A stretch of DNA of 64,000 bases from the NCBI GenBank assembly GCA_965230295.1, contig OZ246001.1, positions 1,760,001 to 1,824,000 of the forward strand, read 5' to 3'. Both the position numbers and the translations under genes were made by a program. The DNA is from Marinicella sp. GTDB taxonomy: Bacteria; Pseudomonadota; Gammaproteobacteria; Xanthomonadales; Marinicellaceae. Of this stretch, positions 1-59,062 are shown piece after piece. The stretch's first letter is position 1, and every line of letters starts with the position of its first letter. The notes under the pieces were generated by a model. The model ran no database searches. It worked only from the letters and a program-made list of their open reading frames with translations, and had not been told where the DNA came from.

Positions 1-1
1 T

Positions 2-112
2 TTTGTGGCTTATTTGAATCGCTTTCAAATCAAACCGGAAGAGCAGGCATTGACGAACCTGTTTGGCAAAGAATATACAGACTACCGACAACAAGTGAGC
101 AGGTGGCTTTGA
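2..112 (+). CDS. 3' end of isoprenylcysteine carboxyl methyltransferase (ICMT)-family membrane protein, partial
   Basis: Manual translation of frame 2: FVAYLNRFQIKPEEQALTNLFGKEYTDYRQQVSRWL*, the typical EE..L...FG..Y..Y...V.RW C-terminus; TGA overlaps the next ATG. Confidence 0.8.
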   Translation, partial: FVAYLNRFQIKPEEQALTNLFGKEYTDYRQQVSRWL

Positions 113-534
113 TGAAAAAATATGAAATAAACAATGAAATTCCAACACCGATGGATTTTTTCGCTTTGTTTGAAACCACTGGTTGGAACGAAGCCTACCA
201 AGTCACACCACAAGCCTTGCAACAAGCCCTGGATGAAAGTTGGTACACCGTCAGTGCCTATGACAGGGGCGAATTGGTAGGGTTTGGCCGGGTGTTGTCT
301 GATGGGGTGTTGTATGCCATGATCTATGATTTGATCGTACATCCTGATTTCCAACAACAAGGCTTGGGTACGATGTTGTTGAACCGATTAATTGAAGCTT
401 GTCAAAAAGCCAACATCAGAGCCATTCAGCTGTTTTCGGCCCATGGAAAAACGCAGTTCTATGAATCCAGAGGTTTTGTCACCAGGCACCATGAAGCACC
501 AGGTATGGTGTATGCACACAAGAAAGACCATTGA
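112..534 (+). CDS. GNAT family N-acetyltransferase
   Basis: Acetyl-CoA motif A VHPDFQQQGLG and FYESRGF; ATG at 112 coupled (TGATG) to the upstream stop. Confidence 0.9.
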   Translation: MKKYEINNEIPTPMDFFALFETTGWNEAYQVTPQALQQALDESWYTVSAYDRGELVGFGRVLSDGVLYAMIYDLIVHPDFQQQGLGTMLLNRLIEACQKANIRAIQLFSAHGKTQFYESRGFVTRHHEAPGMVYAHKKDH

Positions 535-29870: not shown

Positions 29871-31982
29871 ATGGTCCGGACATTGTATTTACAGATAATC
29901 GTCATTAGCATGCTTGGTTGGTCTTTTGCCAGCCAGTCTCAATCGAAGGTGTCTGGTTGGCAGGTGGATACTGTGCACGGTCCTTCACAACAAGGCATTG
30001 CTGACAGCATAGCATTGGATTTCAACCAGGATGGTCGATTGGATGTGGCTTCAGTGTCATACAACGATGGTCACTTAAGGCTGTATTTAAATCAAGGCAA
30101 CCTCGTTTTTGATCAACAGATCATCAGCACAGATTTATTTGGCGCATTTCGAATCGTCAAAGCAGATTTGAATGACGACAATGAATTTGACTTTATAGTC
30201 CCATCGATAGAGACTTCTGAAATCATTGCCGTGATGAGTGGTCCTGATGGACATGAAAAGCAAGTCATTGCTTCAGGTGTGTTGGTTCCCAGTGATGCCC
30301 AGGTTGGGTTTCTCAATGACGATGATTTATTGGATGTGGCAAGCACTTCATTTCAGGAGGGATTGCTGCTGGCACATCTACAACAAATCGATGGCAGTTT
30401 TGAAACCGAAATCATTTCAGATGTGCCTGTAAACCCCAGAAAAATGGTGCTTGAAGATTTCGATAACGATGGCTTGGTTGATGTGTTGTTGGCCTCATCA
30501 GGTGACGATTCAATCAGGCTTTTCACAAAGCAGCAAAATGATGGGTATGTTGAGACATTGATCAGCAACCAAGCCCTGGGTACCAGGTACACGGAATCTT
30601 GTGACGTCAATGGCGACATGTTACCTGATTTTGTGGTTTCAGCATCAGACGCAAACACCATCTGGGTCTATACAAATTTGGGGTCTAACACATTCAGTCA
30701 AACAGAGCTGGACAATGATGTGGCAGGGGTTCGTTCCTTGTACTGTGTTGACATTGATGATGACGGTCAGCAAGAATTACTCAACTTAGCAGCAGTCACC
30801 GGGGTGATTTATGCCCATGAATTGAAGGGCCCAGTCAACAGGGTTGAAGTGGCCAGTAACAGAGATGGGTATGTCAATGTCAAAGCAGGGGTGTTTACAG
30901 GTGATCAAACAAGCTTATTAACCCAAACGTTTTTTGATAACAGAAATTTGTTGTATGACCCGCTATCAACCAATCAAGAACAAGTGGTTTGGGAAGATTT
31001 TCCAGATGGGGCCAGTGATGTCAAAATGGGAGACATCAACAATGACGGGGTGGAAGATTTGGTGGCATCCAGTTTCAGAGACGATCGGGTGCAATGGTAT
31101 GATGGCACAACCTTTCAACATCACATCATAGCTGAAAATATAGATGGGGCCGCAGAGGTTTTGGTGGTTGATCTGGATGATGACGGATGGGTGGATGTGT
31201 TGTCAGCCGCTTCTTTTGCCAACACTTTTTATTGGCATCGAAATACCGGCAATGAGGTGTTCAATACCTTGGTCATTTTCGACGATGCGCGTTTTGCCAA
31301 TGGATTGGCTGTCGCTGATCTTGATGAAGATGGCCAATTAGATGTGGTCGGGACTTCAGGTTCTGATGACAGTGTCAGGTTGTTTACCCGCAATGGCGTG
31401 TCATTCACTGTACAGTTGCTTGATGACCAAAATGATGCCCCCAATGAGGTCAAAATATATGATATGGACGGAGACATGGATCTTGATTTGGTGGTTCCAT
31501 ATACGTTCTCTGACGAGTTGGTGATGTATGAAAATTTGGGAGGTGCTTTTAGCAGCCAAGTTCTGGCATCAAACCTGGACAGGATTGACTCCACCGCAAT
31601 AACCGACATCAACAATGATGGGTTCATGGATATATTGGCCAGTGTTGCTGGAGATGATGTGGTGGTTAAGTTGATCAATCAAGCCAATGGTGTATTCGTG
31701 CAAGAACCATTGATTCAAGACATTGAAACGCCTAAGAGAATCAAGTTCAATTCAGCCACCCCATACAATTTTTTACAAACCAACTTTTTCCCGAATGGTG
31801 TTGAAGTTGCTTCCATTTATAACTTAGGCGGGGTTCCCGGTGATTATGGTGACTTGTTGTTCGAGTTCAGCAATGCATTGTCCAACTCCAGTCACGTTTT
31901 TTTGGCTTCTTTGCAAGATTTGATTTATGCTGATGGATTTCAAACACAACAAGCCTTCACTCTTGATATTGACCATCCATAA
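29871..31982 (+). CDS. Secreted FG-GAP/VCBS repeat beta-propeller protein with near-terminal DLIYADGFQ tag
   Basis: Signal peptide; many DxxxDGxxD Ca-binding repeats (DFNQDGRLD, DINNDGVED, DLDEDGQLD etc.). Confidence 0.9.
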   Translation: MVRTLYLQIIVISMLGWSFASQSQSKVSGWQVDTVHGPSQQGIADSIALDFNQDGRLDVASVSYNDGHLRLYLNQGNLVFDQQIISTDLFGAFRIVKADLNDDNEFDFIVPSIETSEIIAVMSGPDGHEKQVIASGVLVPSDAQVGFLNDDDLLDVASTSFQEGLLLAHLQQIDGSFETEIISDVPVNPRKMVLEDFDNDGLVDVLLASSGDDSIRLFTKQQNDGYVETLISNQALGTRYTESCDVNGDMLPDFVVSASDANTIWVYTNLGSNTFSQTELDNDVAGVRSLYCVDIDDDGQQELLNLAAVTGVIYAHELKGPVNRVEVASNRDGYVNVKAGVFTGDQTSLLTQTFFDNRNLLYDPLSTNQEQVVWEDFPDGASDVKMGDINNDGVEDLVASSFRDDRVQWYDGTTFQHHIIAENIDGAAEVLVVDLDDDGWVDVLSAASFANTFYWHRNTGNEVFNTLVIFDDARFANGLAVADLDEDGQLDVVGTSGSDDSVRLFTRNGVSFTVQLLDDQNDAPNEVKIYDMDGDMDLDLVVPYTFSDELVMYENLGGAFSSQVLASNLDRIDSTAITDINNDGFMDILASVAGDDVVVKLINQANGVFVQEPLIQDIETPKRIKFNSATPYNFLQTNFFPNGVEVASIYNLGGVPGDYGDLLFEFSNALSNSSHVFLASLQDLIYADGFQTQQAFTLDIDHP

Positions 31983-32804: not shown

Positions 32805-32857
32805 TTAATTAATCATATGGGTATCCATTGGTTTTATCACACGGTTTTAGCTAGGAA

Positions 32858-38862: not shown

Positions 38863-39013
38863 AAGATAAAAAGAACGCAGTAACCTTCAAGTGTTAAAAT
38901 GAATAATTGCGATTGGTTGGTAAATTTTAGAAGGGCCGAAAACCTCAAAAGAAATGTTATTAAAAGCCTGATCAAAATCAGACTAATGAAGGCTTATTGT
39001 CTACAGTAATAAA

Positions 39014-39559
39014 ATGAACAGAGATTCAGGAAAAATATTTTGTATTGGATTCCATAAAACAGGTACCAAAAGCCTGACATCATCACTCAGACAATTGGGG
39101 TTTAAAGTTAAAGGTAGGTTTGGCGTTAATGACAGCAACATCCAAAACAATGCATTAAGCAAAGCAAAAAAGCTTGTTAGACAATATGATGCATTCCAAG
39201 ATAACCCATGGCCAATTCTATATAAAGAACTGGATGTGTTGGTTCCAAACAGCAAGTTTATTTTAACCATAAGGAACAAAGAATCGTGGTTAAAAAGTGT
39301 TATTAATTACTTTGGTGAAAGTGAAACCGAAATGAGAAAATGGATCTATGGTCATGGTTCACCAGTCAACAATGAATCAATTTATTTATCAACTTACGTC
39401 AAGCACAACGACGCGGTCAAAGATTATTTCTCTGACCGACAATCTGACTTGCTTATCATGGATCTTGAACAAGGAAATGGTTGGAGTGAACTGTGTTCTT
39501 TCTTGAAAATAGATGATGTTCCACTTTCACCTTTTCCACACAAAAACAAAGGATCATGA
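39014..39559 (+). CDS. Sulfotransferase (short, Sulfotransfer_4-like)
   Basis: KIFCIGFHKTGTKS, KFILTIR..ESWLKS, WSELCSFL, FPHKN. Confidence 0.88.
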   Translation: MNRDSGKIFCIGFHKTGTKSLTSSLRQLGFKVKGRFGVNDSNIQNNALSKAKKLVRQYDAFQDNPWPILYKELDVLVPNSKFILTIRNKESWLKSVINYFGESETEMRKWIYGHGSPVNNESIYLSTYVKHNDAVKDYFSDRQSDLLIMDLEQGNGWSELCSFLKIDDVPLSPFPHKNKGS

Positions 39560-41274
39560 GCAAGAAACCCATTCACATTTCATTTGTTGTACACCGCGGC
39601 TTTCTGGAAACACAGTCTGTCTTACTTGTTTGTTCCATTTTGAATGTCTACGGCAATAAGGTGAAGATTCATGCAGGGGTTCCAGAACACCTGGGCGGTG
39701 TCGAATCAGGAATCAGCCATGAATTCAAAAACATTTTAACCGAGTTGGGTGTTGAGTTTTTTACAGTAAAAAATCCGATTGGTGAAGACTATCCAATTGG
39801 TAATAAGCTGGGTTGTTTCGCCAAAGTTGATTCCGGAATAAGAATATTTTTAGATACAGATGTTCTCCTTTTGAGACCGTTGGATTTAACCGGCCTCTCC
39901 GATGACAGCATCGCCATTAAGCCAGCAGATAGAAAAACATATAAATGGAGTGATGGAGACTGGAGTTACGCCTATGAAAAATACAGTAAGGCAACACCAA
40001 GCCTGGTTCAAATGTATTCAACTTGTTTCAATGAGTTGATGCGCCCTTATTACAATGCTGGGGTCATCATATTGAGTGGATGTCATGATTTCAGTGAAGC
40101 TTGGAGCTCAATCTCAAAGCAAGTAGACAGTGATGAAAACTTAGCCAATAAAAGACCTTGGCTGGATCAGCTGGCCTTACCGCTGGCCATCAAAAAACTT
40201 GGTTTAAAAGCCACTAACCTCAGTGAGCAATATAACTTTCCTGCGCACTTAAAAACTGTTCCAGCAGACCCTCCTTGCATTGTTCACTATCACTGGGCAA
40301 ACATATTATCCAGAGACCACCAGCTGCTAAAATACGTGAAAAAACTGGCTGACTCGTATCCTGTTTTGTCTGCAGTTTTTAGCGCCTCGTCTCAACAGTG
40401 GCAAGATTTAAATGGATTGATCAAGCAAAAGCGCAAAAAAGAGGTGTTCAGCAAAGATTGTTCCGGCAGGAACATCATTCTGACCGGCATTCCACGAAGC
40501 GGTACCAGTCACTTGTGTTCTCTGTTATCAAAGTACAATGACACTTTTGTTTTGAATGAGCCCAAAGAAGTGATCAGGCCCATTAACAGGCAGCCTATTC
40601 CTTATGGCGTTGATGGGTTTTATGCAGAAATAAGAAAAAACATTCGCTTGAATAAGCCAATTGAAAACAAGCACATTGACGGAAAGATCATCTCCGACAC
40701 AACAGTTGAAGACGAAAGAACACTCTATAGTAAGCCAGACTTAACACCAAACTACCACTTATATACAAAGAATACTTTAGGCTACTTGTTTGCCATTGAG
40801 CGCCTCAAACAAACCATGCCGGATACAAAAATATTCTCATTGTTCAGAAACCCGGTTGATACGATCGCCTCATGGAAGAACAGTTTTGAGCATTTAGAAA
40901 AATCTTTGCCGCTTGAGCTGAAAACCATAAGGTTGCAAAGTAGGTGGTTAAACAAGAAAGACAACCTGAGTCTGATGCAGATCAATTCTTGTGATGATGA
41001 CTGTATCAGAAGGGCAATCTTTTGGAATTTTTTGGCCATTAGGATGATCAAGAATGCACATTTAATTAATCTTTTGCATTATGATGATTTGATACTAGAC
41101 ACGAATCGAGCGATCAATAAAATCAGGAATTTGGCAGGCCATGAGGCAGATGAAATGGTTTTAAAATCTTCTGATATCAGGTCAAAGCGATCTGCATTGA
41201 GTGATGCTGAAATCAACTTAATCGAAGAAATAACCCACAATACTTACCAACAACTGTTGCGCTTAAAAATTTAA
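39556..41274 (+). CDS. GT8-like glycosyltransferase fused to a sulfotransferase
   Basis: N-half FLDTD, YYNAGV, LDQLAL, YNFP, IVHYH; C-half LTGIPRSGTS, LNEP, RNPVDTIASW. Confidence 0.8.
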   Translation: MSKKPIHISFVVHRGFLETQSVLLVCSILNVYGNKVKIHAGVPEHLGGVESGISHEFKNILTELGVEFFTVKNPIGEDYPIGNKLGCFAKVDSGIRIFLDTDVLLLRPLDLTGLSDDSIAIKPADRKTYKWSDGDWSYAYEKYSKATPSLVQMYSTCFNELMRPYYNAGVIILSGCHDFSEAWSSISKQVDSDENLANKRPWLDQLALPLAIKKLGLKATNLSEQYNFPAHLKTVPADPPCIVHYHWANILSRDHQLLKYVKKLADSYPVLSAVFSASSQQWQDLNGLIKQKRKKEVFSKDCSGRNIILTGIPRSGTSHLCSLLSKYNDTFVLNEPKEVIRPINRQPIPYGVDGFYAEIRKNIRLNKPIENKHIDGKIISDTTVEDERTLYSKPDLTPNYHLYTKNTLGYLFAIERLKQTMPDTKIFSLFRNPVDTIASWKNSFEHLEKSLPLELKTIRLQSRWLNKKDNLSLMQINSCDDDCIRRAIFWNFLAIRMIKNAHLINLLHYDDLILDTNRAINKIRNLAGHEADEMVLKSSDIRSKRSALSDAEINLIEEITHNTYQQLLRLKI

Positions 41275-41291
41275 CCAACGGTTTGTTACAT

Positions 41292-42116
41292 TCAATCGTA
41301 TTCGAAGTTATCGTAAAACTTCTTGTAGTGATCACCGTATTTAACCAGATAGTCCTGGATTAATTGTTTTTCACTGTGGTCGTAATATTTGTTTTTATTT
41401 CCTGATTCAAGCTTATTGATGTCAGGTGAATTATTGCCTGTTATTTGACTGATGATTCCATGGGTGTCTGTTAACAGGTCTTCATATTTGATAATTTCAA
41501 CAGCGTTTAAGTGGTTGAAAAACTCCCGGTAAAACCAATCAATGATCAAAACCTGTTTATGCAACAAGTCTGTTGATCCTGAAGTAAAGTCTAAAAAATC
41601 AGTTGAATATTTCTCAGCTATTTTCATGTTGCCGAAACTGACTGGTATTTTCAGCGACCGCCATGACATGATGCATGAAATCGGATTTCGAATGATGCCA
41701 TATATTTTGAATTCATTGGTCTTGATCAAATCACTGAGGCAGGCGGTGAATTGCGCATTTGATTTGATATAAAAAGGGTACTTGGCATATGCCTTCTCTA
41801 ACTGCACCCACTCTTCATTCTTAATTGTGATGACTTCACCACTGTTGTCTCTTTTGTAATAATTTGTGGGCGTCTTTTGCGTTTCTTTGTTAATTTTCAG
41901 CTTTAAGGGTTTGTTTTGATCAATGTCGGTCCTGAGTCTTGCAATTTGAAACAGCAGTTCTTTGGTAAACGCATCGCTGGTTTCACTTGATTGCCTGATT
42001 AATTTCAACCATTCTGGCTCACTGAACACAACAGCTTTTTGGCTGTCTGCAATTAGTGATGTAATGAGGGTTGTCCCTGATCTGGGAATACCGGTTATGA
42101 GGTTATTTGATTTCAT
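41292..42116 (-). CDS. Sulfotransferase
   Basis: ITGIPRSGTT, FSEP, IRNPISCIMSW, KYEDL. Confidence 0.85.
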   Translation of the reverse strand: MKSNNLITGIPRSGTTLITSLIADSQKAVVFSEPEWLKLIRQSSETSDAFTKELLFQIARLRTDIDQNKPLKLKINKETQKTPTNYYKRDNSGEVITIKNEEWVQLEKAYAKYPFYIKSNAQFTACLSDLIKTNEFKIYGIIRNPISCIMSWRSLKIPVSFGNMKIAEKYSTDFLDFTSGSTDLLHKQVLIIDWFYREFFNHLNAVEIIKYEDLLTDTHGIISQITGNNSPDINKLESGNKNKYYDHSEKQLIQDYLVKYGDHYKKFYDNFEYD

Positions 42117-42125
42117 TGAGATATA

Positions 42126-42160
42126 AAAAAACCCTGACATCAAATGTTCAGGGTTTTTTT
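42126..42160 (-). terminator. Intrinsic terminator of the 248-aa secreted protein gene
   Basis: A7-CCCTGA...TCAGGG-T-tract hairpin ~20 bp after the stop. Confidence 0.85.
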
Positions 42161-42182
42161 ATTACTTTGTTTTAATAAACAA

Positions 42183-42929
42183 TTATGGTCCGCAAGATCC
42201 ACCAATAAATGTTTGTCTTCTGCTTTCGAATTCATCTAAGAAGTACAATGAGCCAAGGCCGGCATTGTTACTTTTATCCATTGAACCCAATCGAGCTCTG
42301 GTGATGAAAGGCCATTTAACAGAAGTGTTCAAGCCAGTTAAATCAACGGCTGGAGTATCAGACTCAGCAGTGGCATTAACCCATAACTTGAATGTACCAG
42401 CTGTTAAGTCAACATCATACTCAACTCTTGTAGGAGCGTCAGGGATGTCAACAAAATGACGGCTCTTGTTTTGAGCAGCAGATCCACCATTGTCCTGACG
42501 AACAAACAGATCTAAGCGGTATTGGTTGGCAACAACACTTTCAAGTTTAATTTGCACGATGTCAGAGTTGTCGCAGTTACCACCAGCACATTGAGCTTGG
42601 TGAACTTTAACCCTTCTGTTTGAACCAGTTGTGTTCATAGGCAGAGAGTTAGGATCAAGACAAAACGCAGCACGATATCTGGTTTCTTGGTTTGGAGAAC
42701 CGTCCTGAACAAAGTGTCTGCTTGCCTGACCACCGTTTTGGTTGATCACTTCCAGAGCAAGACCACATTGAGTGCCCGCTTGTGCGGCAGCTGCAGTGAT
42801 GTTCATCCCATTAGTAGGGTTGTTATATTGTCCCCATGCAGCACCATTGGTGTTGTCACATTGTGCCATCGCAACAGTACCAAATAACATGGCTGTTGTA
42901 GCTACTACTATTTTATTGATTAATTTCAT
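42183..42929 (-). CDS. Secreted Cys-containing beta-sandwich protein of unknown function (candidate surface scaffold)
   Basis: RBS GAAGG, signal peptide ending AMA-Q, six Cys, motifs FVQDGSP..E.RYRAAF.LDPN and FLDEFESRRQTFIG. Confidence 0.8.
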   Translation of the reverse strand: MKLINKIVVATTAMLFGTVAMAQCDNTNGAAWGQYNNPTNGMNITAAAAQAGTQCGLALEVINQNGGQASRHFVQDGSPNQETRYRAAFCLDPNSLPMNTTGSNRRVKVHQAQCAGGNCDNSDIVQIKLESVVANQYRLDLFVRQDNGGSAAQNKSRHFVDIPDAPTRVEYDVDLTAGTFKLWVNATAESDTPAVDLTGLNTSVKWPFITRARLGSMDKSNNAGLGSLYFLDEFESRRQTFIGGSCGP

Positions 42930-43009
42930 ATTTACCTTCTATTTTTAATTGAATATATATTATAACGGCCTTTTTTTGATTATCGGTCAAATTAATTTCA
43001 TTTTTTTTA

Positions 43010-43960
43010 TTACCACATATGTTCTGTCATATTTAACGCCTTTAATACCACGTCCCTCTCATTTTCCAAAGTGAATAATTTTGATTCCTGTTTGGCCTTT
43101 TTTAATAATTGATTCTTAACACCATCATCCATTGCGCATACTTGATGAATAGAGCTTGCCATACTTTCAGTGTCATATGCACTGACAAAGCATGTTTCCA
43201 TGTGTTTTGAGTATGAGCGGTTACCGACACAATCAGGGATAATCACCAACGAGTCCAGCATCATGGCTTCAACGCCAGGGATATAATGTTCTTCTACTTG
43301 TTTTGGCAGGTGGACTGACAAATGGCTTTGTGCCAATTTCATCTGAAATTCCTTTTTTGAGATCCAACCGTCAATGACTTCAATCCTGGCATTCAATTCA
43401 TTGAGCATTGACTTCAGTTGTGTGGCCATGGGTGGGTTTTTATTACCGACAATCAAAACATCATAAATTTTTTGGTGCATAAGGTTTTGGGCTTCTTCAA
43501 AGATGCCAACACCATTTGGCAAGAAGATTGTCTCCCCATTGGTGTTGGGGTGGTTGTTGGTGGCATCATACAGTTCTCTGCTGGGACAAAGTCGGATGGC
43601 CTTTCTTGGCAGGAAGTCAAAAGATTTATGTCCAGGCTTAACGGCCCTGAAGTTATTGACTGGTGAGACTATAGGCATGGAGTCAGGAATGGTTCTTTGG
43701 GCAGAGTATTTAATCCAGTCTTTGCCTGAGTTTAAAAACAGAATATCAGGTTCCTCTTTCAAATCTTTCAGGGTGGGCATTTCTTCAAAACAACTAAACC
43801 AGGGTAAATGCTCATCCCAAATAGAGTCTTCATCAAAATAAATAACCGGTTTATAGTCTTTAAAACCTTTGATGTGATTAAAAAAATCAAAGGTCTTGTG
43901 GTGTGCTCCCCTGACCACCCCCTTTAAACCAAAGTGTTGGTAAAATAATACTGTTTTCAT
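43010..43960 (-). CDS. GT-B (GT4-like) glycosyltransferase, paralog of 36665-37597
   Basis: DVLIVGNKNP, EEHYIPGVEAMML. Confidence 0.8.
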   Translation of the reverse strand: MKTVLFYQHFGLKGVVRGAHHKTFDFFNHIKGFKDYKPVIYFDEDSIWDEHLPWFSCFEEMPTLKDLKEEPDILFLNSGKDWIKYSAQRTIPDSMPIVSPVNNFRAVKPGHKSFDFLPRKAIRLCPSRELYDATNNHPNTNGETIFLPNGVGIFEEAQNLMHQKIYDVLIVGNKNPPMATQLKSMLNELNARIEVIDGWISKKEFQMKLAQSHLSVHLPKQVEEHYIPGVEAMMLDSLVIIPDCVGNRSYSKHMETCFVSAYDTESMASSIHQVCAMDDGVKNQLLKKAKQESKLFTLENERDVVLKALNMTEHMW

Positions 43961-43981
43961 AGTTTTGAATTTTAATAATAA

Positions 43982-44623
43982 TTAAAACATCTTATCAATC
44001 AGGCTGAAGTATTCTGCCAATAAATCTTTATTGACCAAATCAGCTGCCTTGCGTTTGTTGGAGTGGATGGGTTTGATGGGTTCGTTGTTTGAGTACGTGA
44101 CGTTGTTCTTATCAAAAAACAAGACCAACTCTTCAGCCCATTGAGCAGATCTTGTGACATCAATTTCTAAAAAGTTCTGTTTGTTTTGAAAGTGAACCCT
44201 CGCTTGCTTGTGGTAAAGGTCTCTGTCTAAAAGCCATTTTTTAAGTGCAATGGCTTCGTTGGTATAAAAATCTTTGGCCATTTTCCCATATTTTTTTTTG
44301 GTGAGCACCGTTTGGTGGTCGACATTGTCATTGTGTCTCATGACATGCTTGACTCGTGAATACAGCCATTCCTTTTTATCTCTGGTGTTCAGGATAAATA
44401 AACTGTTTGGAAACCATTTTTCCAACAGGGTGAAGTTACATTGTTCGCCATCGGTGTAACATTGGTCGATAAAATAGTCTTTGCCCTTTTTGACATAACT
44501 ATAATGGCACCACTCTGTATTATGAACACTGGATAAACCACATGATTTGAAAAAACGGTGTAGAGATGTGGTTCCCGTTTTATTGAAACCAATACAAAAG
44601 ATTTTTTGCTCCTTTTTGCTCAT
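43982..44623 (-). CDS. Sulfotransferase
   Basis: KIFCIGFNKTGTTS, FILNTR..EWLYS. Confidence 0.85.
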   Translation of the reverse strand: MSKKEQKIFCIGFNKTGTTSLHRFFKSCGLSSVHNTEWCHYSYVKKGKDYFIDQCYTDGEQCNFTLLEKWFPNSLFILNTRDKKEWLYSRVKHVMRHNDNVDHQTVLTKKKYGKMAKDFYTNEAIALKKWLLDRDLYHKQARVHFQNKQNFLEIDVTRSAQWAEELVLFFDKNNVTYSNNEPIKPIHSNKRKAADLVNKDLLAEYFSLIDKMF

Positions 44624-44648
44624 AGTAGCGTCATTGATGGATTAAAGG

Positions 44649-45350
44649 CTAAATGCAAATTTCTAACAACTTGTCATAAAGCGGTAAAAGATTTTTTGGG
44701 CAATCATCTCGGGCATAGTTATTTTGATTAACTAAATTTTTATCAAAAAACTCAACGTTGTTATTGGCAGTTAACTGCAACTGAGAACTGATTAAGTCTA
44801 TTTTTTTAAGGTATTCGGTATGCTCCAAATCAAAGTTAATAATTGGAAATTCAGATTGATGATAAATACCAATTAATTTTTCATTATAGACCTGCCATAA
44901 GTGGCTTGCCTGTTCCTCGGACATGGTCAAGTTTTTATGTTTTCTGGCCAAGAGTGATTGAATGACCGCAACAGGGTGTCTAATGGTCCCAACCAGCTGA
45001 TGGTTTGGAATCTCATCTTTCCAAAATGAGTAAGCCAATACCATTCTGGGGTCTTTTATTCCCCATGGCTTGGGCACCTTTTGATAATTTGCAATGACTT
45101 GATCTCTTCTTGTTGCCAACTCATTGTTCCAGGTTAGTGGGCCCGTTGGAGGACTTCTCCAGCTGCCCTGGTTGTGCTGTAAAAGAGACTCATTCAATTT
45201 GAAAACGTCTTTGTTTTCTTGATTGCCTTTTTTGTTGTGTTTGTTGGAGTCAGAGACTGTTCCCAAATTCAGGCCAAAATCTTTTAAACAACCGGTCAGA
45301 CAACTGGTGCCACTGCGGTGCATGCCAAGTATGATAATGGCGTCACTCAT
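44649..45350 (-). CDS. Sulfotransferase
   Basis: ILGMHRSGTS, WGIKDPR, RHPVAVIQSL. Confidence 0.88.
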   Translation of the reverse strand: MSDAIIILGMHRSGTSCLTGCLKDFGLNLGTVSDSNKHNKKGNQENKDVFKLNESLLQHNQGSWRSPPTGPLTWNNELATRRDQVIANYQKVPKPWGIKDPRMVLAYSFWKDEIPNHQLVGTIRHPVAVIQSLLARKHKNLTMSEEQASHLWQVYNEKLIGIYHQSEFPIINFDLEHTEYLKKIDLISSQLQLTANNNVEFFDKNLVNQNNYARDDCPKNLLPLYDKLLEICI

Positions 45351-46176
45351 TGGATGTCAGTTTCGTGTAAAAAGAAGGGTCTTCTTCTATCATTTTGAAT
45401 ATTTTTTTACTGTTTTCCCGGTTTTTAAGCATTTCATATTTTAATGGCAAAAATAATTTCCTGGCGAGCCAACGAGGCATGATTTTTTTTGCCTTTTGAA
45501 ACCTTTCGAACCTTGATTCAAAATCTTTAACCTTATTTCTGTCTACTCGGGTTCCGGGGTTTCGGAATGCGGCTCCATGGTGATAAACCAAGTTTTCGTA
45601 TACACCAAACAGTAACGGGTGAAGGTCATGCTGGTTACTGCGATTGAGCTTATACCAGTCGATGTTCCTGTTATTCAACTTTCTTAACATCACACCACCC
45701 ACATCCCACACATCCTTGTTAAACTTATCTTTCCATGTGATACCCCCATGGTTCCAGTCTCCTTGTATCTCTTTCCAAAATTTGACTTTACAAATACAAA
45801 AACAAGGGTGAGGTTGAATGTCGCCATTGTTTTCATACCTTTGGACGGCAGCCAGCGGGTATTGTTTTAGCGCGGTTGAAAATAAATTATCAAGTGGAGC
45901 AATGGGGAAAGCATCTCCATCCAAAAACATCAAATAGTCGTCTTCTGATTCTGCATTAAAAGCGGCCATATCAGCCAACAAATTGAGTTTAATGGGGTGG
46001 CTTTTGATGTCTTCTGTATTGGTATAAAAGAACTTTTCTTTGTGCATGCCTACTTTAGGTACATGGTTCAAAAACGCATAGACCTTAAAAGGTTCATTGA
46101 GGTTTTGATTTAAGTATTTCAGCTGTATGTCTATCCAATCAGCTGACTTCCAATGAATAGTGAGGACATGAATCAT
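45343..46176 (-). CDS. Putative GT-A fold glycosyltransferase
   Basis: MFLDGDAFP (DxD), HPCF, DVGG, YHHG; locus context. Confidence 0.55.
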   Translation of the reverse strand: MIHVLTIHWKSADWIDIQLKYLNQNLNEPFKVYAFLNHVPKVGMHKEKFFYTNTEDIKSHPIKLNLLADMAAFNAESEDDYLMFLDGDAFPIAPLDNLFSTALKQYPLAAVQRYENNGDIQPHPCFCICKVKFWKEIQGDWNHGGITWKDKFNKDVWDVGGVMLRKLNNRNIDWYKLNRSNQHDLHPLLFGVYENLVYHHGAAFRNPGTRVDRNKVKDFESRFERFQKAKKIMPRWLARKLFLPLKYEMLKNRENSKKIFKMIEEDPSFYTKLTSNE

Positions 46177-46342: not shown

Positions 46343-47011
46343 ATGAAAACGCTGAGTGAAAAAATCCAGGAAATCCAAAAGGCAGGAATTTTTTTAGGCG
46401 GGCCGCCTGAGCTGTTCGAAGATGCCGGGAGAAAGATGCTGATGGTGTTATTAAATGAAGGGTTGATGCCGTACTCTAAAGTTTTGGACATCGGTTGTGG
46501 TTGCTTGAGAGGTGGGTACTGGGTGATACGTTTTCTCAACAGTCAGGGTTACTATGGAATAGAGCCCAATAAAGCCATGTTGGCGGAAGGTTTAAATTGT
46601 TTGTTTTCAAGAGAAACGCTAGAACTGAAAAACCCCAGTTTTGATCACAATGAAGATTTCGATGTTTCAGTTTTCAACACCAAATTTGATTATTTTCTCG
46701 CCAGGTCTATTTGGACCCATGCATCAAAACAACAAATTTCCGTGATGTTAGACGGGTTTGCAAACCACACCAATCCGAAAGCCGTGTTTTTAACATCATT
46801 TGTCAATGCCAAGCTTGAAAGCGAGGAATACATGGAGCACAGCTGGGTTGGCAAAAGTCACAACTCTGATGAAGCAGGGATCGTGAAACACAGTTTCGAT
46901 TGGATTGAGTCAGAGTGTATAAACAGAGGCCTTCAGGCCGAAATCATTGTCAATGAAACTTTTGACCTAAGTAACAACCAAAGGTGGATAAAAATAACCC
47001 AAAAGTCATGA
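46343..47011 (+). CDS. Class I SAM-dependent methyltransferase
   Basis: VLDIGCGCLRGG, FDYFLARSIWTH. Confidence 0.88.
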   Translation: MKTLSEKIQEIQKAGIFLGGPPELFEDAGRKMLMVLLNEGLMPYSKVLDIGCGCLRGGYWVIRFLNSQGYYGIEPNKAMLAEGLNCLFSRETLELKNPSFDHNEDFDVSVFNTKFDYFLARSIWTHASKQQISVMLDGFANHTNPKAVFLTSFVNAKLESEEYMEHSWVGKSHNSDEAGIVKHSFDWIESECINRGLQAEIIVNETFDLSNNQRWIKITQKS

Positions 47012-47934
47012 AACACGCCATCCTATTTTGTGTTGAGGCAGGATTGCTTGAAAGCCAGACTCGCTTGTTGGTCAATTCGTTCAAACAATTTTCTCCTGGT
47101 AACAACCATCACCTGTTTGCATTTTCACCCAGAGAAAATTTTCGGCCAAGCAGCAAGACTTATGAGTATTTGGCCAGAAACCATGTGACACACATAGATC
47201 ACTGTTTAAATGATTCATTTTTGAATTACCCCATTGCCAACAAAATTTTAGCTTGTTCATATTTTGAGCAAAACATGCCTGAATTCGAATCAGTCATGTT
47301 CTTGGACACTGACACCGTCCTTTTGAATGATTTTGGCCTCAACGAGTTTGACTCCAAGGGGCTTTATCTAAAACCGGTTGGACACAAAGGACCGGGAACG
47401 GTCGGCAACGAAGATGCCAATGATGGTTTTTGGCAGCAAGTTTTTTCATTGTTTGAACTTGCTTTGCCAGCGGTTAAATTTCACACCACGATCAAAGACA
47501 CAGCGATTCGAGGTTATTTCAATGCTGGATTGGTGTGGTCAAATAAAGTACCTGGCTTTTTTCAGCAATGGGAACAAGATTTTTTGAAACTGATTGACTC
47601 CGGATTGACACCACCTGGGTTTGTTTCGAAAGATCGAAACAATTTCAGGTGTCTCGACCAAGTTGCGTTGGCAGTCACGGCAAGTCGATTTGATGAATGC
47701 ATCAAAATATTGCCTGCCGGATACAATCACCACATTCCATTCAGGCCCATGATGGTCGATAAGTATTGCCCAGATTTTAAGGACTTGATCCACATTCATT
47801 ATCACAAGTGGTTCCAACACCCTGGTTTTTTGGATCACATCACTACAGAACAAGAGAAACTATCCGTACAATACCAGTGGCTTAAGAAACAGTTGCCGTT
47901 AACACCAACCATCGATGATCAGTTCAAGTGTTGA
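47008..47934 (+). CDS. GT8-like glycosyltransferase, paralog of the 39556 N-half
   Basis: YPIANK, FLDTD, YFNAGL, LDQVAL, HIHYH. Confidence 0.75.
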   Translation: MKHAILFCVEAGLLESQTRLLVNSFKQFSPGNNHHLFAFSPRENFRPSSKTYEYLARNHVTHIDHCLNDSFLNYPIANKILACSYFEQNMPEFESVMFLDTDTVLLNDFGLNEFDSKGLYLKPVGHKGPGTVGNEDANDGFWQQVFSLFELALPAVKFHTTIKDTAIRGYFNAGLVWSNKVPGFFQQWEQDFLKLIDSGLTPPGFVSKDRNNFRCLDQVALAVTASRFDECIKILPAGYNHHIPFRPMMVDKYCPDFKDLIHIHYHKWFQHPGFLDHITTEQEKLSVQYQWLKKQLPLTPTIDDQFKC

Positions 47935-56028: not shown

Positions 56029-56502
56029 TTATTTTGTTTGGTAGATCATTTCTTGGTGAGGAATCAAGTCTTCCAGATAGTATTGTCCGGTACTGACAAA
56101 CCCCAAGTTAACATAAAACTGATGCAAGTAAGATTGAGCAGATATTTTGAGCGGGTGCTCAGGAAAACGATCAAGGCATGCAAGGATGGCCGCTTTCATT
56201 AAGGCCCCGCCGACTTTTTCATGCCTCACTTGTTCGGCAACCACCACTCGGCCAATGCTGATGTACTCGTTGTTATTTTGTTCAGGTGTCAGGATGCGCG
56301 CATAGGCCACCAAATCACCATTGTCAGCTTTTTTGAACAGGTGTAAAGCGTCCTCATCAAGTCCATCAAGGTCCAAATAGGGGCAGTCCTGTTCAAGTAC
56401 AAAAACGGCATTTCTGAGTTGCATCAGCTGATACAACTCATGGAGGCTCAGTTCGGCAAATTTGCGCAATGAAAATTCTGAATCATTCAAAGTCATCAGC
56501 AA
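56029..56502 (-). CDS. elaA: ElaA-like GNAT acetyltransferase
   Basis: LRNAVFVLEQDCPYLDLDG, IGRVVV, ISAQSYL..FY, YLEDLIPH. Confidence 0.88.
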   Translation of the reverse strand: MLMTLNDSEFSLRKFAELSLHELYQLMQLRNAVFVLEQDCPYLDLDGLDEDALHLFKKADNGDLVAYARILTPEQNNNEYISIGRVVVAEQVRHEKVGGALMKAAILACLDRFPEHPLKISAQSYLHQFYVNLGFVSTGQYYLEDLIPHQEMIYQTK

Positions 56503-59062
56503 AAATCAAATCATTGTCAAGCTCAAGCGGCAGGGGCCAAACATAGGCACCGCGGGATCGGGTGAATACAGCCAAGGTGGTGGCACCTCGATCAATGGTC
56601 ATGTCCCATATCATCACTGAAGGCAAACCGTTGTCAAATCTGAACCATACTGGCTCATCCACATCCACATTTTCGGTATAGTATAAGCCCCAATCGGTGC
56701 CGGCAAAAACCATGCCGGGGACGTTTGGGTTCACCATCACACTGTCAACTGGAATGTTGGGTAAGTTACCTGACTTATTTTTCCATTCAAAACTGCTGCA
56801 ATCACTGTTACAACTGACTTCAAATAAGTGGCCGGGTGTGCTTGGGGTGTTTTGATCAAACCCTCCAACAGCGGCATAGCCTTTGGTGGCAATGGAACCA
56901 TCAGTGACGACATCTAAAACGGGTCTGTTAGGCAGCACAGTGTTGCCACCAGTCACATCCACCCAATTGGCCGAGTTGGCAGAACCCATGCCCATATCAA
57001 AGCCATAATAAACGTTGCCATCATTGGTTCCCACAATAGCCACAGTGGCATCAGAAATACCATAATGCATTTGATTGATGATGGATCGATTCCCCAACAC
57101 CCCTTTGGTTAAATCAGGGCTGTTGACGTACCAGGCAGAATTATTCAGCCCACCAGTGGTGGTCTCCCAGATTCGGTAAGTACCAGCCATCAATTGGTCA
57201 CATGATCCACCGGTACAATCGTGCTTGTTTAAATGGAAGGGGAAAATGAAGGGTACCCGGTTATCATTTGACCAAGGATTGGCAAAGGAGGAGTAACTGC
57301 CCAGGGGGCCATTGGTACTGATTCTCATGTTGCCGAATTGTGATTCAACATAAACCCGTTGTCCATTGATGGGTTCAATGGTTGCATAGATACCGTCACC
57401 ACCATTGACACGGGTCCATGGTTTGGCTTCAAAGGGTTCTGAGTTGGTGTCCCATAAGGCCACAGAAGAGCCGTTGTCCTGGGCACCGCCAACAGCCACC
57501 CGATCGGTGCTATTAACAAAATCTGCACTGATGTCACCAGAATAAAACTCAATGGTGTTGATGGTGTTGTTAAGTTGGGTATAAACAATGTCTCTTGCGT
57601 TGGCTTCGCTGGCATTGCTGGTGTAATACACACCGCCATCATTGCCCACCAACAATTGATTTGGGTCGCCTGCCACATAAGCGCGGGCATGGTGATCAAC
57701 ATGGACAAAATCGCCAGCATTGGGGCCACCGGCATAGCCACATGTGCTGTTGGTGAAGGTATCTCCACCATTACTGGACTTGAACAAATCCACTGCCGAT
57801 AAAAACAACTCATCTGAATTGGATGGAGAGACACTCATGCCCATGTCATACCAGGCTTGGGTGCCACTGTCGTCACAACCAATGAAGTCATTGGTATCGG
57901 CCACTTGTGTCCAGCTGGTACCACCATTGGTGGTTTTCCATACCCCTTTAACAGCTCGGGTACTGACATCTGCCACTTGTGCATACAACACTTCGTTGTC
58001 TGATGGAGCCATGGTCAAATCAATGCGACCTAAATCATTGGCAGGATAGGGTGTGCCTTCGCCGGTTCCAGCAGGCCAACCATTGGTGCTGGTTGTGACC
58101 AAGGTCCAAGTGGGGCAACCTGTGGCAGGGAAATCTGCTTTATAAATGCCATTGGCACCGTTTTGACTGAGGTCGGCTTGTACAGTGGTGTTGTGTCCTC
58201 GGGTTCCAATGGCAGCATAGATTTCTCCAGAGGCATTGACCTCCATCCCAGTGATGTCTTGACGCTGGGTATCAAATGAGTTGGTCAAACATGCCTCGGT
58301 CCAATCAGTGCCGTTGTTGAATGAAAAGAACAGTCCCGTTTTGGTGCCCACCACTATTTGAGTAGAATCTAACGGGTTGGTTCTTACCCGGCCAATGGCT
58401 TGGTATTGAGGAAACTCACCAACGGGTTGATCACGATAAGGGGCAAATTCCGCTTCACCCAGCACTTCCCATGTATTGCCTGCATCAACAGATCGCAACA
58501 ACCCGGCACTACCAAATGAGTAAGATCCATAGCGCAAGTCTCCAGTCCCGGCATAAATGATGTTTGGGTCATTGGGGTCAAGGTGCAAATCACCAATGGC
58601 AGCACCATTGACGCCAGTGGTGTCGGTGACATTGGCCCAGGTGGTTTGATCATCACAACAGTCTGTGGTTTTCCAAACACCACCACCATCAACACCAGCA
58701 TAGGCGATGGTTTCATCAGTGGGGTGACTGACGATCACATTAACCCGACCAGAGTAGGCTGTACCCGCTGGGTTGCCCAAAGGTTTTGGGCCCAGTGCGA
58801 TAAAAGCATTGGGATCAAGGCCTTTAAAGTTTGCTGCATTCCGGTTCATACGAGCCGGTTGTTTTTTGCGGTTTTTCTCGTGTGATACACGTGCTGAAAC
58901 CAACCACTCCTGGCTGTATTGGAAGGTTGGGTAACTGTATCTGGTGGCCCAATAATCACCCCTAACAGGTTTGTAATAATCTTCCATATCACTGTGGTCA
59001 TTATCACTGCTACAAGCTGCCATCAGTAAGCTGGCGCACATTAAACTAAAGATTTTTTTCAT
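56483..59062 (-). CDS. Lipoprotein with BNR/Asp-box (sortilin/xyloglucanase-like) beta-propellers and C-terminal DLIFADDFE tag
   Basis: Lipobox MAAC, SGRV, GGVWKT, SVDAGNTW, TTNGGTSW, HVDHH, GNDGGVY, GGAQDNG, GTDWG, TRSRGAY. Confidence 0.85.
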   Translation of the reverse strand: MKKIFSLMCASLLMAACSSDNDHSDMEDYYKPVRGDYWATRYSYPTFQYSQEWLVSARVSHEKNRKKQPARMNRNAANFKGLDPNAFIALGPKPLGNPAGTAYSGRVNVIVSHPTDETIAYAGVDGGGVWKTTDCCDDQTTWANVTDTTGVNGAAIGDLHLDPNDPNIIYAGTGDLRYGSYSFGSAGLLRSVDAGNTWEVLGEAEFAPYRDQPVGEFPQYQAIGRVRTNPLDSTQIVVGTKTGLFFSFNNGTDWTEACLTNSFDTQRQDITGMEVNASGEIYAAIGTRGHNTTVQADLSQNGANGIYKADFPATGCPTWTLVTTSTNGWPAGTGEGTPYPANDLGRIDLTMAPSDNEVLYAQVADVSTRAVKGVWKTTNGGTSWTQVADTNDFIGCDDSGTQAWYDMGMSVSPSNSDELFLSAVDLFKSSNGGDTFTNSTCGYAGGPNAGDFVHVDHHARAYVAGDPNQLLVGNDGGVYYTSNASEANARDIVYTQLNNTINTIEFYSGDISADFVNSTDRVAVGGAQDNGSSVALWDTNSEPFEAKPWTRVNGGDGIYATIEPINGQRVYVESQFGNMRISTNGPLGSYSSFANPWSNDNRVPFIFPFHLNKHDCTGGSCDQLMAGTYRIWETTTGGLNNSAWYVNSPDLTKGVLGNRSIINQMHYGISDATVAIVGTNDGNVYYGFDMGMGSANSANWVDVTGGNTVLPNRPVLDVVTDGSIATKGYAAVGGFDQNTPSTPGHLFEVSCNSDCSSFEWKNKSGNLPNIPVDSVMVNPNVPGMVFAGTDWGLYYTENVDVDEPVWFRFDNGLPSVMIWDMTIDRGATTLAVFTRSRGAYVWPLPLELDNDLIFADDFE

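Follow-up and report, generated by a model that had tools for sequence, protein, structure and literature searches.

A strand-less jelly-roll protein of Marinicella as a candidate natural catcher of a nine-residue C-terminal tag

The C-terminal signatures LPXTG, PEP-CTERM, GlyGly-CTERM, MYXO-CTERM and the T9SS CTD are short and are found on many varied exoproteins of one genome. In sortase-type C-terminal sorting signals, the motif is followed by a transmembrane helix and then by a basic tail. Cohesin-dockerin and SpyTag/SpyCatcher each pair a small tag with one dedicated partner domain. Dockerins fold into Ca2+-binding modules about 70 aa long and scaffoldins are multivalent; SpyTag/SpyCatcher is man-made, consists of one domain divided between a strand peptide and the remainder, and forms an isopeptide bond. 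In donor-strand complementation, known from chaperone-usher pilins, archaeal threads and cannulae, a strand-deficient fold is completed by another polypeptide. The donor strand comes from the same kind of subunit, and a filament is built. For cannulae, the jelly-roll case, and for AbpX, Ca2+ is reported to be involved too (bioRxiv 10.1101/2024.12.30.630787, 10.64898/2026.01.04.697558).

We analysed a window of Marinicella sp. DNA, by which we mean the whole stretch of 64,000 nucleotides, and within it a gene for a small secreted protein. This protein may be a natural catcher of a nine-residue tag, because the strand that it lacks ends about 50 other secreted proteins of the same genome; we refer to it below as the catcher. 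The gene and its signals are as follows.

42183..42929, minus strand: catcher gene, 248 aa, ATG start, secreted protein predicted to be a Cip1/PL20-like beta-jelly-roll without strand 1
42864-42929, minus strand: predicted catcher signal peptide, residues 1-22; the mature chain starts at QC
42935..42939, minus strand: Shine-Dalgarno-like GAAGG, 6-10 nt 5′ of the catcher ATG, read from the sequence
42959..42964, minus strand: perfect -10 box TATAAT upstream of the catcher, read from the sequence
42985-42990, minus strand: -35-like TTGACC with a 20-nt spacer to TATAAT, the sole -35-like hexamer
42123..42162, minus strand: intrinsic terminator hairpin with A- and T-runs on either side, from RNA folding

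The catcher begins with MKLINKIVVATTAMLFGTVAMA, which resembles a signal peptide; QCDNTNGAAW comes next, and the mature form is a single domain of 226 residues. The signal peptide and the six Cys listed in a first-pass annotation of this DNA were borne out by the translated ORF, and the motifs quoted there (AAAAQAGTQCGL, FVQDGSPNQETRYRAAFCLDPN and FLDEFESRRQTFIG) were all found in the translation. The same annotation gave the gene its own ribosome-binding site, its own terminator and a perfect TATAAT, and these correspond to GAAGG, to the folded hairpin and to 42964-42959 on the minus strand. A consensus scanner called no promoter at the catcher, because it allowed a spacing of 16-18 nt and that between TTGACC and TATAAT is 20 nt. 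The terminator was not picked up by a pattern scanner and was recovered by folding (-21.7 kcal/mol, z -5.65, equalled by 0 of 200 shuffles). Codon adaptation was scored against 33 ribosomal/EF genes, and 2778 ORFs were ranked. The catcher has a CAI of 0.713, which is rank 79 (97th percentile). The ribosomal genes average 0.729, the median of the genome is 0.629, and the 15 neighbouring ORFs have lower values than the catcher (0.56-0.67). Its skew to AAC, GAC, GGT, GCT, ACT and GTT, described earlier as unlike its neighbours, was confirmed, and the high expression that had been suggested on that basis is probable from codon usage. Axis 1 of a codon-usage PCA was also considered as an expression axis; it was dropped in favour of CAI because its extreme genes (GmrSD, resolvase, HEPN and others) represent foreign AT-rich DNA.

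No family was found for the catcher by hmmscan against Pfam-A with E up to 10 or by a scan of NCBIfam. The AF2 model (pLDDT 92) shows a Cip1/PL20-like beta-jelly-roll whose two sheets can be superposed on 2ZZJ and 3ZYP. The best Foldseek matches of the model are PL7, PL14 and PL20 lyases and Cip1, and the ESM Atlas gave as its lead a cluster of Cip1-like PF21340 proteins (0.94). Using VIA-align, the catcher aligned with 2zzj_A over 197 residues (28..245 versus 9..236, Z 17.9, rmsd 2.9) and with 3zyp_A at Z 14.3. At the level of sequence, 2zzj_A was also the top match of profile A3 against the sequences of solved structures, with a marginal E of 0.057 and only noise beyond it, and profile A2 gave only a chance-level match to HmuY (E 0.26). 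The nearest structural match is thus Cip1/PL20 glucuronan lyase (PDB 3ZYP, 2ZZJ; PF21340 Polysacc_lyase-like), although, unlike PF21340, the catcher gives no significant match to any Pfam model.

These fold relationships, and the ESM Atlas lead with them, are what would be expected if the catcher were simply a stand-alone Cip1/PL20-like glycan binder or lyase of the sulfated-glycan island in which its gene lies. Strand 1 would then be dispensable, and the tag would be an unrelated, autonomous sorting or retention signal for other machinery. We regard this explanation as unlikely. The 64-sequence alignment A2 of the family holds no invariant His, Tyr or Lys, and no conserved candidate catalytic residues were seen in the family alignment; further points on both sides are given below.

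Multidomain relatives, mostly from Chloroflexota, carry the same domain preceded in cis by (D)LIFxDGFE. Pfam gave no match to the domain in ten of these in-cis relatives. We defined a strict motif, [LIVM][LIVM][FY]x[DNSGTA]xF[EDQN] directly before SGNLSAW, and also counted a relaxed form. Among 118 multidomain instances in the fetched homologues, 58 had the strict motif and 53 more the relaxed one, which has some background since it also matches 17 of 102 free-standing N-termini. The first-pass annotation had described a domain of other bacteria reading DLIFADGFE-SGDLSAW and had proposed a search for homologues with the strand in cis; the domain is real, and such homologues exist. In 96 of the 102 free-standing homologues, a signal peptide is instead followed by 'QC..N.SAW' and the strict motif is absent. 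The domain occurs in its relatives as tandem copies or C-terminally after many unrelated modules, and it ends within 5 aa of the protein C-terminus in 53 multidomain instances. Judged from these architectures, its placement is that of a binding module rather than an enzyme, which argues against the stand-alone lyase.

In an AF2 model of one in-cis homologue, P0125, LIFAD forms a strand (E45-49). This model aligned with glucuronan lyase 2zzj over 196 residues (44..258 versus 1..238, Z 21.0, rmsd 2.4) and with 3zyp at Z 17.8. The alignment of P0125 with 2zzj therefore starts at chain residue 1 and includes the motif strand, whereas that of the catcher starts only at residue 9. Computation thus supports the view that the catcher lacks the canonical first strand of its in-cis and solved relatives, in agreement with the earlier description of a beta-sandwich missing its first strand.

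The missing segment reappears at the C-termini of other proteins. The three tagged cargoes already noted in the window are all present (DDLIFKSDFDP, QDLIYADGFQ plus 12 aa, and NDLIFADDFE, each followed by a stop).

56483..59062, minus strand: cargo 1, 859-aa lipoprotein-like BNR/sortilin-like protein ending NDLIFADDFE; tag at 56486-56512
29871..31982, plus strand: cargo 2, 703-aa FG-GAP repeat protein; DLIYADGFQ at 31917-31943, then 12 residues
9634..10164, plus strand: cargo 3, 176-aa secreted protein ending DLIFKSDFDP; tag at 10132-10158

Genome-wide, the tag lies within 12 aa of the stop in 53 ORFs, of which 31 end exactly at the tag, nine have one residue more and 47 have signal-peptide-like N-termini. 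The earlier equation of the missing strand with the cargo tag therefore extends to about 50 secreted proteins of the genome. They include peptidases, adhesin-like repeat proteins and a nuclease. At the DNA level the tag pattern gave 29 matches in the genome versus 0 for a reversed-pattern control. The idea that the tags are remnants was rejected, as 43 of 44 family genomes have them at the very C-terminus, with 0-1 matches for the reversed pattern. At E up to 1, the three cargoes of the window matched no curated sorting-domain model of NCBIfam. The 53 cargoes matched 49 families, and the 25 of these that were listed include neither a cohesin nor a dockerin family. The tag motif strings and the catcher were not found in the literature searched by string and topic. 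The catcher domain itself has a single match in the genome. That the tag is the very segment preceding the domain family in cis, in a genome with one copy of that domain, counts against the reading in which tag and catcher are unrelated; a chance identity between a nine-residue tag and the in-cis segment is implausible.

The tag and the catcher may also divide a metal site between them. In Cip1, strand 1 is Ile2-Asp4, and the structural Ca2+ ligands are N-terminal Asp5 (main-chain O) and Glu7, Ser37/Asn40 in a loop, and Asp206 in the last strand; Asp7 and Asp222 are the equivalents in 2ZZJ (PMC3764139). An N-terminal I-x-D-D-F-E...W segment and a conserved last-strand Asp, which in the solved proteins hold a structural Ca2+ (PMC3764139), are the points of likeness to Cip1/PL20. 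The catcher itself, unlike Cip1/PL20, is missing the N-terminal strand and with it half of the Ca2+ site. Its invariant D232, in LDEFESRR, appears from the alignment to fit Asp206/Asp222, and the N-terminal ligands, absent in the catcher, appear to be present in the tags. The ...DDFE of the tag and D232 of the catcher may therefore match the two halves of a Cip1-type Ca2+ site.

Complex prediction of the catcher with a fragment of cargo 1 gave a score of 0.78 (runs 0.78, 0.80 and 0.78), versus 0.09 for the best of three controls. Of 80 solved complexes, 58 attained the mark for this score, as did 2 of 110 mismatched pairs; both counts are approximate here, since a custom alignment was used. 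The runs shared at least 96% of contacts, with a partner pLDDT of at least 59. On the partner side the predicted interface consisted of cargo 1 residues 850-859 alone, the last ten, and the pairs with least error formed regular antiparallel registers with catcher residues 233-238 and 74-78. The modelled tag adjoins the last strand and the mature N-terminus of the catcher, beside which the first-pass annotation had expected strand insertion. The family has 17 positions that are invariant or nearly so; 11 of them fall in the 30-residue predicted interface, where 2.2 were expected (hypergeometric p 2.5e-7). Surface conservation in the free-standing family is thus highest at the predicted tag site and not at an obvious catalytic set, a further point against a stand-alone lyase. 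The complex score supports tag binding. It may reflect fold completion remembered from in-cis relatives, as with the halves of a split gene, and it is silent on affinity.

These data are computational and are best read as a natural split-domain tag/catcher pair, an explanation that we consider somewhat probable. The gene of a highly expressed, Sec-exported catcher would have had its first strand removed, the mature chain starting just after it, and about 50 Sec-exported proteins would carry the missing strand, DLIFxDxFE, at the C-terminus. After export, the tag would insert antiparallel to the last strand of the catcher (LDEFESRR), beside strand 72-78, and would so rebuild a complete jelly-roll domain in trans. 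The structural Ca2+ site would probably be completed at the same time, and binding may then depend on Ca2+. The cargo would gain, non-covalently, the C-terminal jelly-roll module that other phyla fuse in cis.

The same predicted binding could instead serve inside the envelope, with the catcher as a periplasmic chaperone or secretion adaptor and the rebuilt domain as a common module read by an outer-membrane secretion system. Both partners have Sec signal peptides, and the cargo set resembles the exoprotein sets that bear other sorting tags. No secretion-system gene was found in the neighbourhood of the catcher, however, and the in-cis form common in Chloroflexota is a permanent C-terminal module there, so we consider this variant improbable.

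The distribution of the two partners was compared in a 151-genome sample of the order. At least three tags were present in 20 of the 28 genomes with a strong catcher match versus 6 of the 123 others, and the co-occurrence spans three families. Since kin are not independent, the association rests on about three clades. Of the 14 family genomes of at most 60 contigs, 13 combine the catcher with 5-48 tags; the remaining one has no catcher and 3 tags. Eight of 44 family genomes (G010, G013, G015, G027, G028, G036, G038 and G040) have no strong catcher match yet contain 15-31 tags. They are assemblies of 110-470 contigs, and three of them (G010, G028 and G040) have the conserved flanking gene at the end of a contig; G015, which is not one of these three, is 97% complete. 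Conversely, G108 and G129 have a strong catcher match and 0 tags, and four further families of the order carry weaker free-standing relatives together with 0-3 strict tags, so that a catcher-like protein can exist without the tag. The phylogenetic profile predicted earlier, a strand-less protein in genomes with many tagged ones, therefore holds at the level of clades but has exceptions among individual genomes. The tag-rich genomes without a detected catcher, and the catcher-like proteins in clades nearly free of strict tags, favour the explanation in which the tag and the catcher are unrelated.

So does the gene neighbourhood, which consists of sulfotransferases, GT1-like genes, a sulfatase-family gene and an acyltransferase.

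41292..42143, minus strand: sulfotransferase gene (Pfam Sulfotransfer_3/_1), directly downstream of the catcher
46984..47934, plus strand: conserved companion gene for a 316-aa protein with an LDTDT stretch and without Pfam family or signal peptide

Of 16 related loci, 10 have a sulfotransferase homologue next to the catcher and 13 have the companion gene near it; the companion is present in 23 of the 24 family genomes with a strong catcher match. Three island neighbours (38044-38862, 45343-46176 and 46984-47934) are without Pfam match, so that the earlier singling out of the catcher as the only non-enzyme in the island could not be affirmed. The setting raises another possibility, in which the catcher is the substrate of the island: a surface or S-layer-like glycoprotein, present in quantity, that the neighbouring enzymes glycosylate or sulfate. 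Abundance is suggested by the codon bias, the companion gene co-occurs as described, and several N-x-S/T sequons can be read in the catcher sequence. This possibility leaves the missing strand and the tags unexplained, and we hold it to be very improbable. No S-layer feature was found in the small, single-domain catcher, which has no lattice or anchoring module, and the S-layer-like subunit proposed in the first-pass annotation is unsupported.

Under the split-domain reading, the rebuilt module may hold its cargo on the cell's own sulfated surface glycan, an idea suggested by the conserved sulfotransferase/glycosyltransferase neighbourhood and by the glycan-binding cleft of the fold. A wider version can be put forward only tentatively, and we lean against it. 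It would be a proteome-wide system in which one strand-less jelly-roll, made in abundance, serves about 50 exoproteins in trans by way of a C-terminal donor strand of nine residues, Ca2+-rich seawater switches assembly on, and a lectin-like module moors enzymes to the cell's sulfated capsule, also in other families of the order (Lysobacterales in the sequence records). Assembly would be confined to Ca2+-rich seawater because the interface would complete the Ca2+ site. If this version were true, the tag would represent a new class of bacterial protein-sorting signal, with a complementing domain rather than an enzyme as its reader.

The predicted pair shares with donor-strand complementation the completion of a strand-deficient fold by another polypeptide. 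Unlike the subunits of pilins, threads and cannulae, the catcher is itself untagged, ending in GGSCGP, and about 50 unrelated proteins would act as donors. This would give 1:1 capture and no polymer. Nor is there a subunit that is both donor and acceptor, as a filament would need: the C-terminus is FIGGSCGP and the genome holds one copy of the domain. The tag resembles LPXTG and the other C-terminal signatures in being short and borne by many varied exoproteins of one genome. It differs from sortase-type signals in that neither a transmembrane helix nor a basic tail follows it (in 31 of 53 proteins the motif is the very end of the chain) and in that its proposed partner is a complementing domain rather than a sortase-type enzyme. 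As in cohesin-dockerin and SpyTag/SpyCatcher, a small tag would be bound by one dedicated domain; unlike cohesin-dockerin, the tag has nine residues and the catcher is monovalent and of one domain, and unlike SpyCatcher, the catcher is natural and no covalent bond is indicated. Because it is a single domain with one predicted site, the catcher would be an adaptor and not the multivalent scaffold proposed earlier. With one site per catcher, the stoichiometry for about 50 cargoes would require high expression, for which we have the codons as evidence.

Should the binding prove real, this would be the first natural case known to us of a split domain of which a single copy is shared by an entire secretome by means of a short peptide tag, and it would combine donor-strand complementation with the logic of C-terminal sorting. 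It would also account for the C-terminal motif, so far without annotation, that hundreds of exoproteins carry in Marinicellaceae and related families, give a function to a widespread protein family without a Pfam model, and provide a ready-made non-covalent peptide/catcher pair for protein engineering, possibly switchable by Ca2+.

The cysteines of the mature catcher, read from the translation, are C24, C55, C90, C114, C119 and C246. A lipoprotein was considered and rejected: Q precedes Cys24, and C24 and C55 are both near-invariant, which suits a disulfide. Cys24 and Cys55 are probably so linked. C90 and C246 are absent together in about nine of 28 alignment rows, counted by eye (P0037-P0040, P0042, P0043, P0046 and P0050), and P0045 keeps both. 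Their joint loss suggests a second disulfide in the catcher.

The protein studied here, which we call the catcher, is secreted and is encoded in the source genome (G000; 4.01 Mb, 44% G+C, one contig), of which the window spans G000:C1:1760001-1824000, with the following signals, the last two read from the sequence:

42183-42929, minus strand: catcher ORF, ATG start, 248 aa
42964-42959, minus strand: perfect TATAAT (−10 box)
6-10 nt 5′ of the catcher ATG, minus strand: GAAGG, Shine-Dalgarno-like

Past the stop codon lie a hairpin and T-run (−21.7 kcal/mol, z −5.65 on folding), so that the ribosome-binding site, −10 box and terminator claimed by the first-pass annotation are all present. A consensus scanner called no promoter at the TATAAT, because the sole −35-like hexamer is 20 nt off. 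The chain also agrees with its earlier description, having a signal-peptide-like stretch ending AMA, a mature portion opening with QCDNTNGAAW, and six cysteines in that portion. In A1, an alignment of the family, C90 and the C-terminal Cys are gained or lost jointly across homologues, a sequence pattern that fits a second disulfide. Many high-G+C relatives in A1 have A-A-C or A-V-C ahead of Cys24, which could be read as a lipobox in some.

No Pfam or NCBIfam family was found for the catcher. An exhaustive HMMER search recovered 482 cluster representatives with E ≤ 1e-3, of which 76 have E ≤ 1e-10; the named homologues are Marinicella hypothetical proteins. The AF2 model from a 64-sequence alignment (pLDDT 92, pTM 0.87) is a two-sheet beta-sandwich, matched by Foldseek at TM ~0.5 to PL7/PL14/PL20 lyases, GH131, Cip1 and clostridial neurotoxin Hc-N lectin-like domains. 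In an all-against-representatives comparison the top structural relative was the PL20 glucuronan lyase 2zzj (Z 17.9, rmsd 2.9, 197 residues aligned), about 3 Z units above the broad ConA-like field. The same structure was the best PDB sequence match of the family profile, at an E-value of only 0.057, and ESM Atlas pointed to a Cip1-like PF21340 cluster (0.94); the PF21340 (Cip1/PL20) sequence model itself did not recover it. From the fold matches, the marginal profile match and the ESM Atlas lead, we therefore class the catcher with the Cip1/PL20 jelly-rolls, as a remote relative that has no name yet.

The query was realigned to 196 fetched homologues, and domain instances were divided into free-standing and multidomain forms. 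The 102 free-standing instances are proteins of ~235-270 aa, and 96 of them have a signal peptide followed by QC..N.SAW, without the strict motif [LIVM][LIVM][FY]x[DNSGTA]xF[EDQN]. In 58 of 118 multidomain instances this motif lies directly ahead of the domain, typically as DLIFADGFE-SGNLSAWS, and 53 more have a relaxed form, e.g. DPIFADGFESGDLSAW; the relaxed pattern also matches 17 of the 102 free forms and therefore carries background. The domain that the first-pass annotation described with a leading DLIFADGFE strand thus exists, and a homologue search finds that strand in cis. Several multidomain proteins carry tandem copies, and in 53 of the 118 instances the domain ends within 5 aa of the C-terminus. 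Among named records, in-cis forms are mostly from Chloroflexota, and free forms from Marinicella and Lysobacterales genera including Dokdonella, Rudaea, Tahibacter and Rhodanobacter. The AF2 model of one in-cis homologue, P0125 (pLDDT 88.7), has LIFAD as a strand (E45-49) and covers 2zzj from chain residue 1 to 238 (Z 21.0, rmsd 2.4); it also aligns with 3zyp, 5gmt and many more from their first residues. The catcher alignment begins at residue 9 of 2zzj and residue 7 of 3zyp. In these models, therefore, the motif is the canonical first strand of the fold, and the catcher starts just past it. In a relative of the same genus, a second domain copy lies in a 2383-aa open frame (G018:C66:27353-27919), so an in-cis form apparently coexists with the free catcher there.

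The source genome holds a single copy of the domain and many C-terminal copies of the motif, which we call tags. When all six frames were scanned for [DEN][LFI][IVLM][FYW]xxxF[EDQN] within 12 residues of the stop, 53 ORFs of at least 80 aa proved to be tagged, three of them within the window, as had been claimed. The motif is the exact end of 31 and is followed by one extra residue in 9; its consensus is D48 L43 I52 F48 x D36 G24/D18 F53 E30/D17 (counts of 53). A matching DNA pattern gave 29 hits in the genome and its reversed control 0. Read from the first ATG, 47 of the 53 begin with a signal-peptide-like stretch. Pfam families across all 53 include M12B, S8, M28, M14 and M64 peptidases, FG-GAP, cadherin-like, Big and LTD repeats, CotH and endonuclease I, among others; the tagged set is a typical exoproteome. 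Internal copies also occur in large proteins with no jelly-roll domain after them, one of them 42 residues from the N-terminus of a 2344-aa frame:

G000:C1, e.g. 1226645, 1424140, 1506073, 1557992, 1829582, 2454577, 3178409, 3567488: internal DLIFxxGFE/N copies

The complex was predicted from the mature catcher (residues 22-248, with the 64-sequence alignment A2) together with the C-terminal 45 residues of a tagged 859-aa BNR/sortilin-like protein. The score was 0.78 (runs 0.78, 0.80, 0.78); the best of 3 controls scored 0.09. Of 80 solved complexes 58 attain the score mark used, as do 2 of 110 mismatched pairs; these counts are only rough for a custom alignment such as this. Runs shared at least 96% of contacts, with partner pLDDT at least 59. 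On the cargo, the confident interface comprises residues 850-859 (NDLIFADDFE) only; on the catcher it comprises 24, 28-29, 31-32, 44, 48, 51, 53-57, 74, 76-79, 82, 85, 212 and 232-240. Against the last strand of the catcher, the best pairs form an antiparallel register (237 with 852/853, 235 with 854/855, 233 with 857), and a second regular register pairs 74 with 856 and 76 with 854. On our reading, the tag would lie within a single sheet, with one strand of the catcher on each side. The free family has 17 invariant or near-invariant positions, 11 of them in the 30-residue predicted interface (2.2 expected, p 2.5e-7); the conserved interface positions are kept in in-cis forms too, where they pack against the strand that the protein itself supplies. 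The model supports catcher-tag binding as a prediction. Because in-cis relatives exist, the result may reflect completion of the fold by likeness, and the score is no measure of affinity.

We consider it fairly probable that catcher and tags form a split-domain system. The catcher would be exported abundantly and would receive from each tagged exoprotein the absent first strand and part of a Ca2+ site, which would restore the C-terminal jelly-roll module encoded in cis in other phyla. An improbable alternative is that the catcher, with its signal-peptide-like N-terminus, serves as a periplasmic secretion adaptor. Pilins are an established case of donor-strand complementation. Two preprints report it, with Ca2+ involved, for archaeal jelly-roll cannulae and for AbpX (bioRxiv 10.1101/2024.12.30.630787, 10.64898/2026.01.04.697558). 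These systems build homopolymers, unlike the proposed catcher-tag pair. C-terminal sorting tags have similar cargo sets but rely on a TM helix and a processing enzyme, and cohesin-dockerin pairs share the capture logic but use folded modules. No paper on the tag or the catcher was found in the literature searched; the pair would be a variant on known kinds, resting on computation.

The Ca2+ site is suggested by Cip1, which according to its structural description (PMC3764139) holds one structural Ca2+. Strand 1 there is Ile2-Asp4, followed by a loop, Phe6-Trp15; the ligands are the Asp5 main-chain O and Glu7 side chain of the N-terminal segment, Ser37 and Asn40 of a loop, and the conserved Asp206 of the last strand, which is bidentate. 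Counterparts in 2ZZJ are Asp7 and Asp222 (PMC3764139). The Cip1 pattern I-x-D-D-F-E...W corresponds to the tag I-F-x-D-[DG]-F-E followed by N..W32 of the catcher, and by motif the last-strand LDE of the catcher (invariant D232) matches YDE around Asp222. If this mapping is right, tag and catcher would each supply half of the ligands. The D-x-F-[ED] ending of the tag and its position at the extreme C-terminus, abutting the catcher N-terminus, would then be explained.

The surroundings of the catcher gene contain at least six sulfotransferases, two GT1-like genes, a sulfatase-family gene, an AT3-SGNH acyltransferase and a methyltransferase, and include:

32160-47011: low-G+C island (35-42% G+C), bounded by polA
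46984-47934, plus strand: flanking companion gene, 316 aa, no signal peptide
52261-53061: TauE/SafE sulfite-exporter-family gene

The island looks like a sulfated surface-glycan cluster. Our preferred guess is that the rebuilt module binds the cell's own sulfated surface glycan, since sulfotransferase/GT-like genes are conserved around the catcher and its fold has a glycan cleft. The companion, for which no Pfam family was found, contains an LDTDT (DxD-like) stretch; its gene adjoins the catcher in 13 of 16 loci, and of the 24 family genomes where the catcher match is strong, 23 have it. It may be a glycosyltransferase tied to the function of the catcher.

The first-pass annotation expected the catcher in tag-rich genomes. 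Across 44 family genomes, the tag DNA pattern was present in 43 (0-48 copies); the reversed pattern gave 0, except for one genome with 1. The catcher was found in 23 by single protein and in 26 by profile, 24 of these strongly, and the median tag number was 19 with a strong catcher (n=24) versus 7 without (n=20). Among the 14 genomes in at most 60 contigs, 13 have the catcher and 5-48 tags, and the catcher-less one (G026) has 3 tags. In an order-wide sample of 151 genomes from eleven families, some profile match occurred in 88, spanning all eleven; strong matches occurred in 28, in families f1, f3 and f11. At least three tags were found in 20 of these 28 versus 6 of the 123 others. Families f4, f7, f9 and f10 have weak matches only and 0-3 tags, and the tag numbers of five named Lysobacterales genomes in which free forms occur are 6, 11, 1, 6 and 0. 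As kin are not independent, the association amounts to about three clade-level co-occurrences. Two genomes (G108, G129) have a strong match and zero tags. Counter to the model, eight family genomes, all in 110-470 contigs, have 15-31 tags without a strong catcher. The companion occurs without the catcher only in G010, G028 and G040, each time at a contig end, which in G040 and G028 cuts through the gene; this points to unassembled islands. In the other five, including G015 (97% complete), both genes are absent. The tag might instead be read by other machinery, the catcher being simply a glycan-binding or lyase protein of the island; we hold this to be clearly the less probable reading.

Expression was gauged with codon weights from 33 ribosomal-protein and elongation-factor genes of the source genome, clustered around L2, which was found via PF00181; the remainder were recognised from their N-termini. 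The catcher CAI of 0.713 ranks 79th among 2778 ORFs of at least 150 aa, close to the ribosomal mean (0.729; genome median 0.629), and the fifteen neighbouring ORFs have 0.56-0.67; the earlier claim of a codon skew unlike its neighbours therefore stands. The S-layer-like scaffold proposed with it finds no support: the catcher consists of a single domain, has one predicted site and does not itself carry a tag. That it is itself a glycosylated surface-layer protein, for all its codon usage and its neighbourhood of glycan genes, seems to us very unlikely. Codon-usage PCA was discarded as a misleading measure of expression, its main axis being foreign AT-rich genes. The strongest outliers, which probably mark mobile or defence islands, are resolvase, GmrSD, FRG-domain and RiboL-PSP HEPN proteins:

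G000:C1:3724519-3726963, 3750735-3751937, 3781451-3782242, 1955558-1956973: codon-usage outliers

At G000:C1:2740446-2743707, listing ORFs by ATG starts only divides the EF-G gene into two frames (317 and 332 aa) and the second EF-Tu copy into 265 aa plus an overlapping frame; these splits in the str operon may be frameshifts, assembly errors or artefacts of crude ORF calling.
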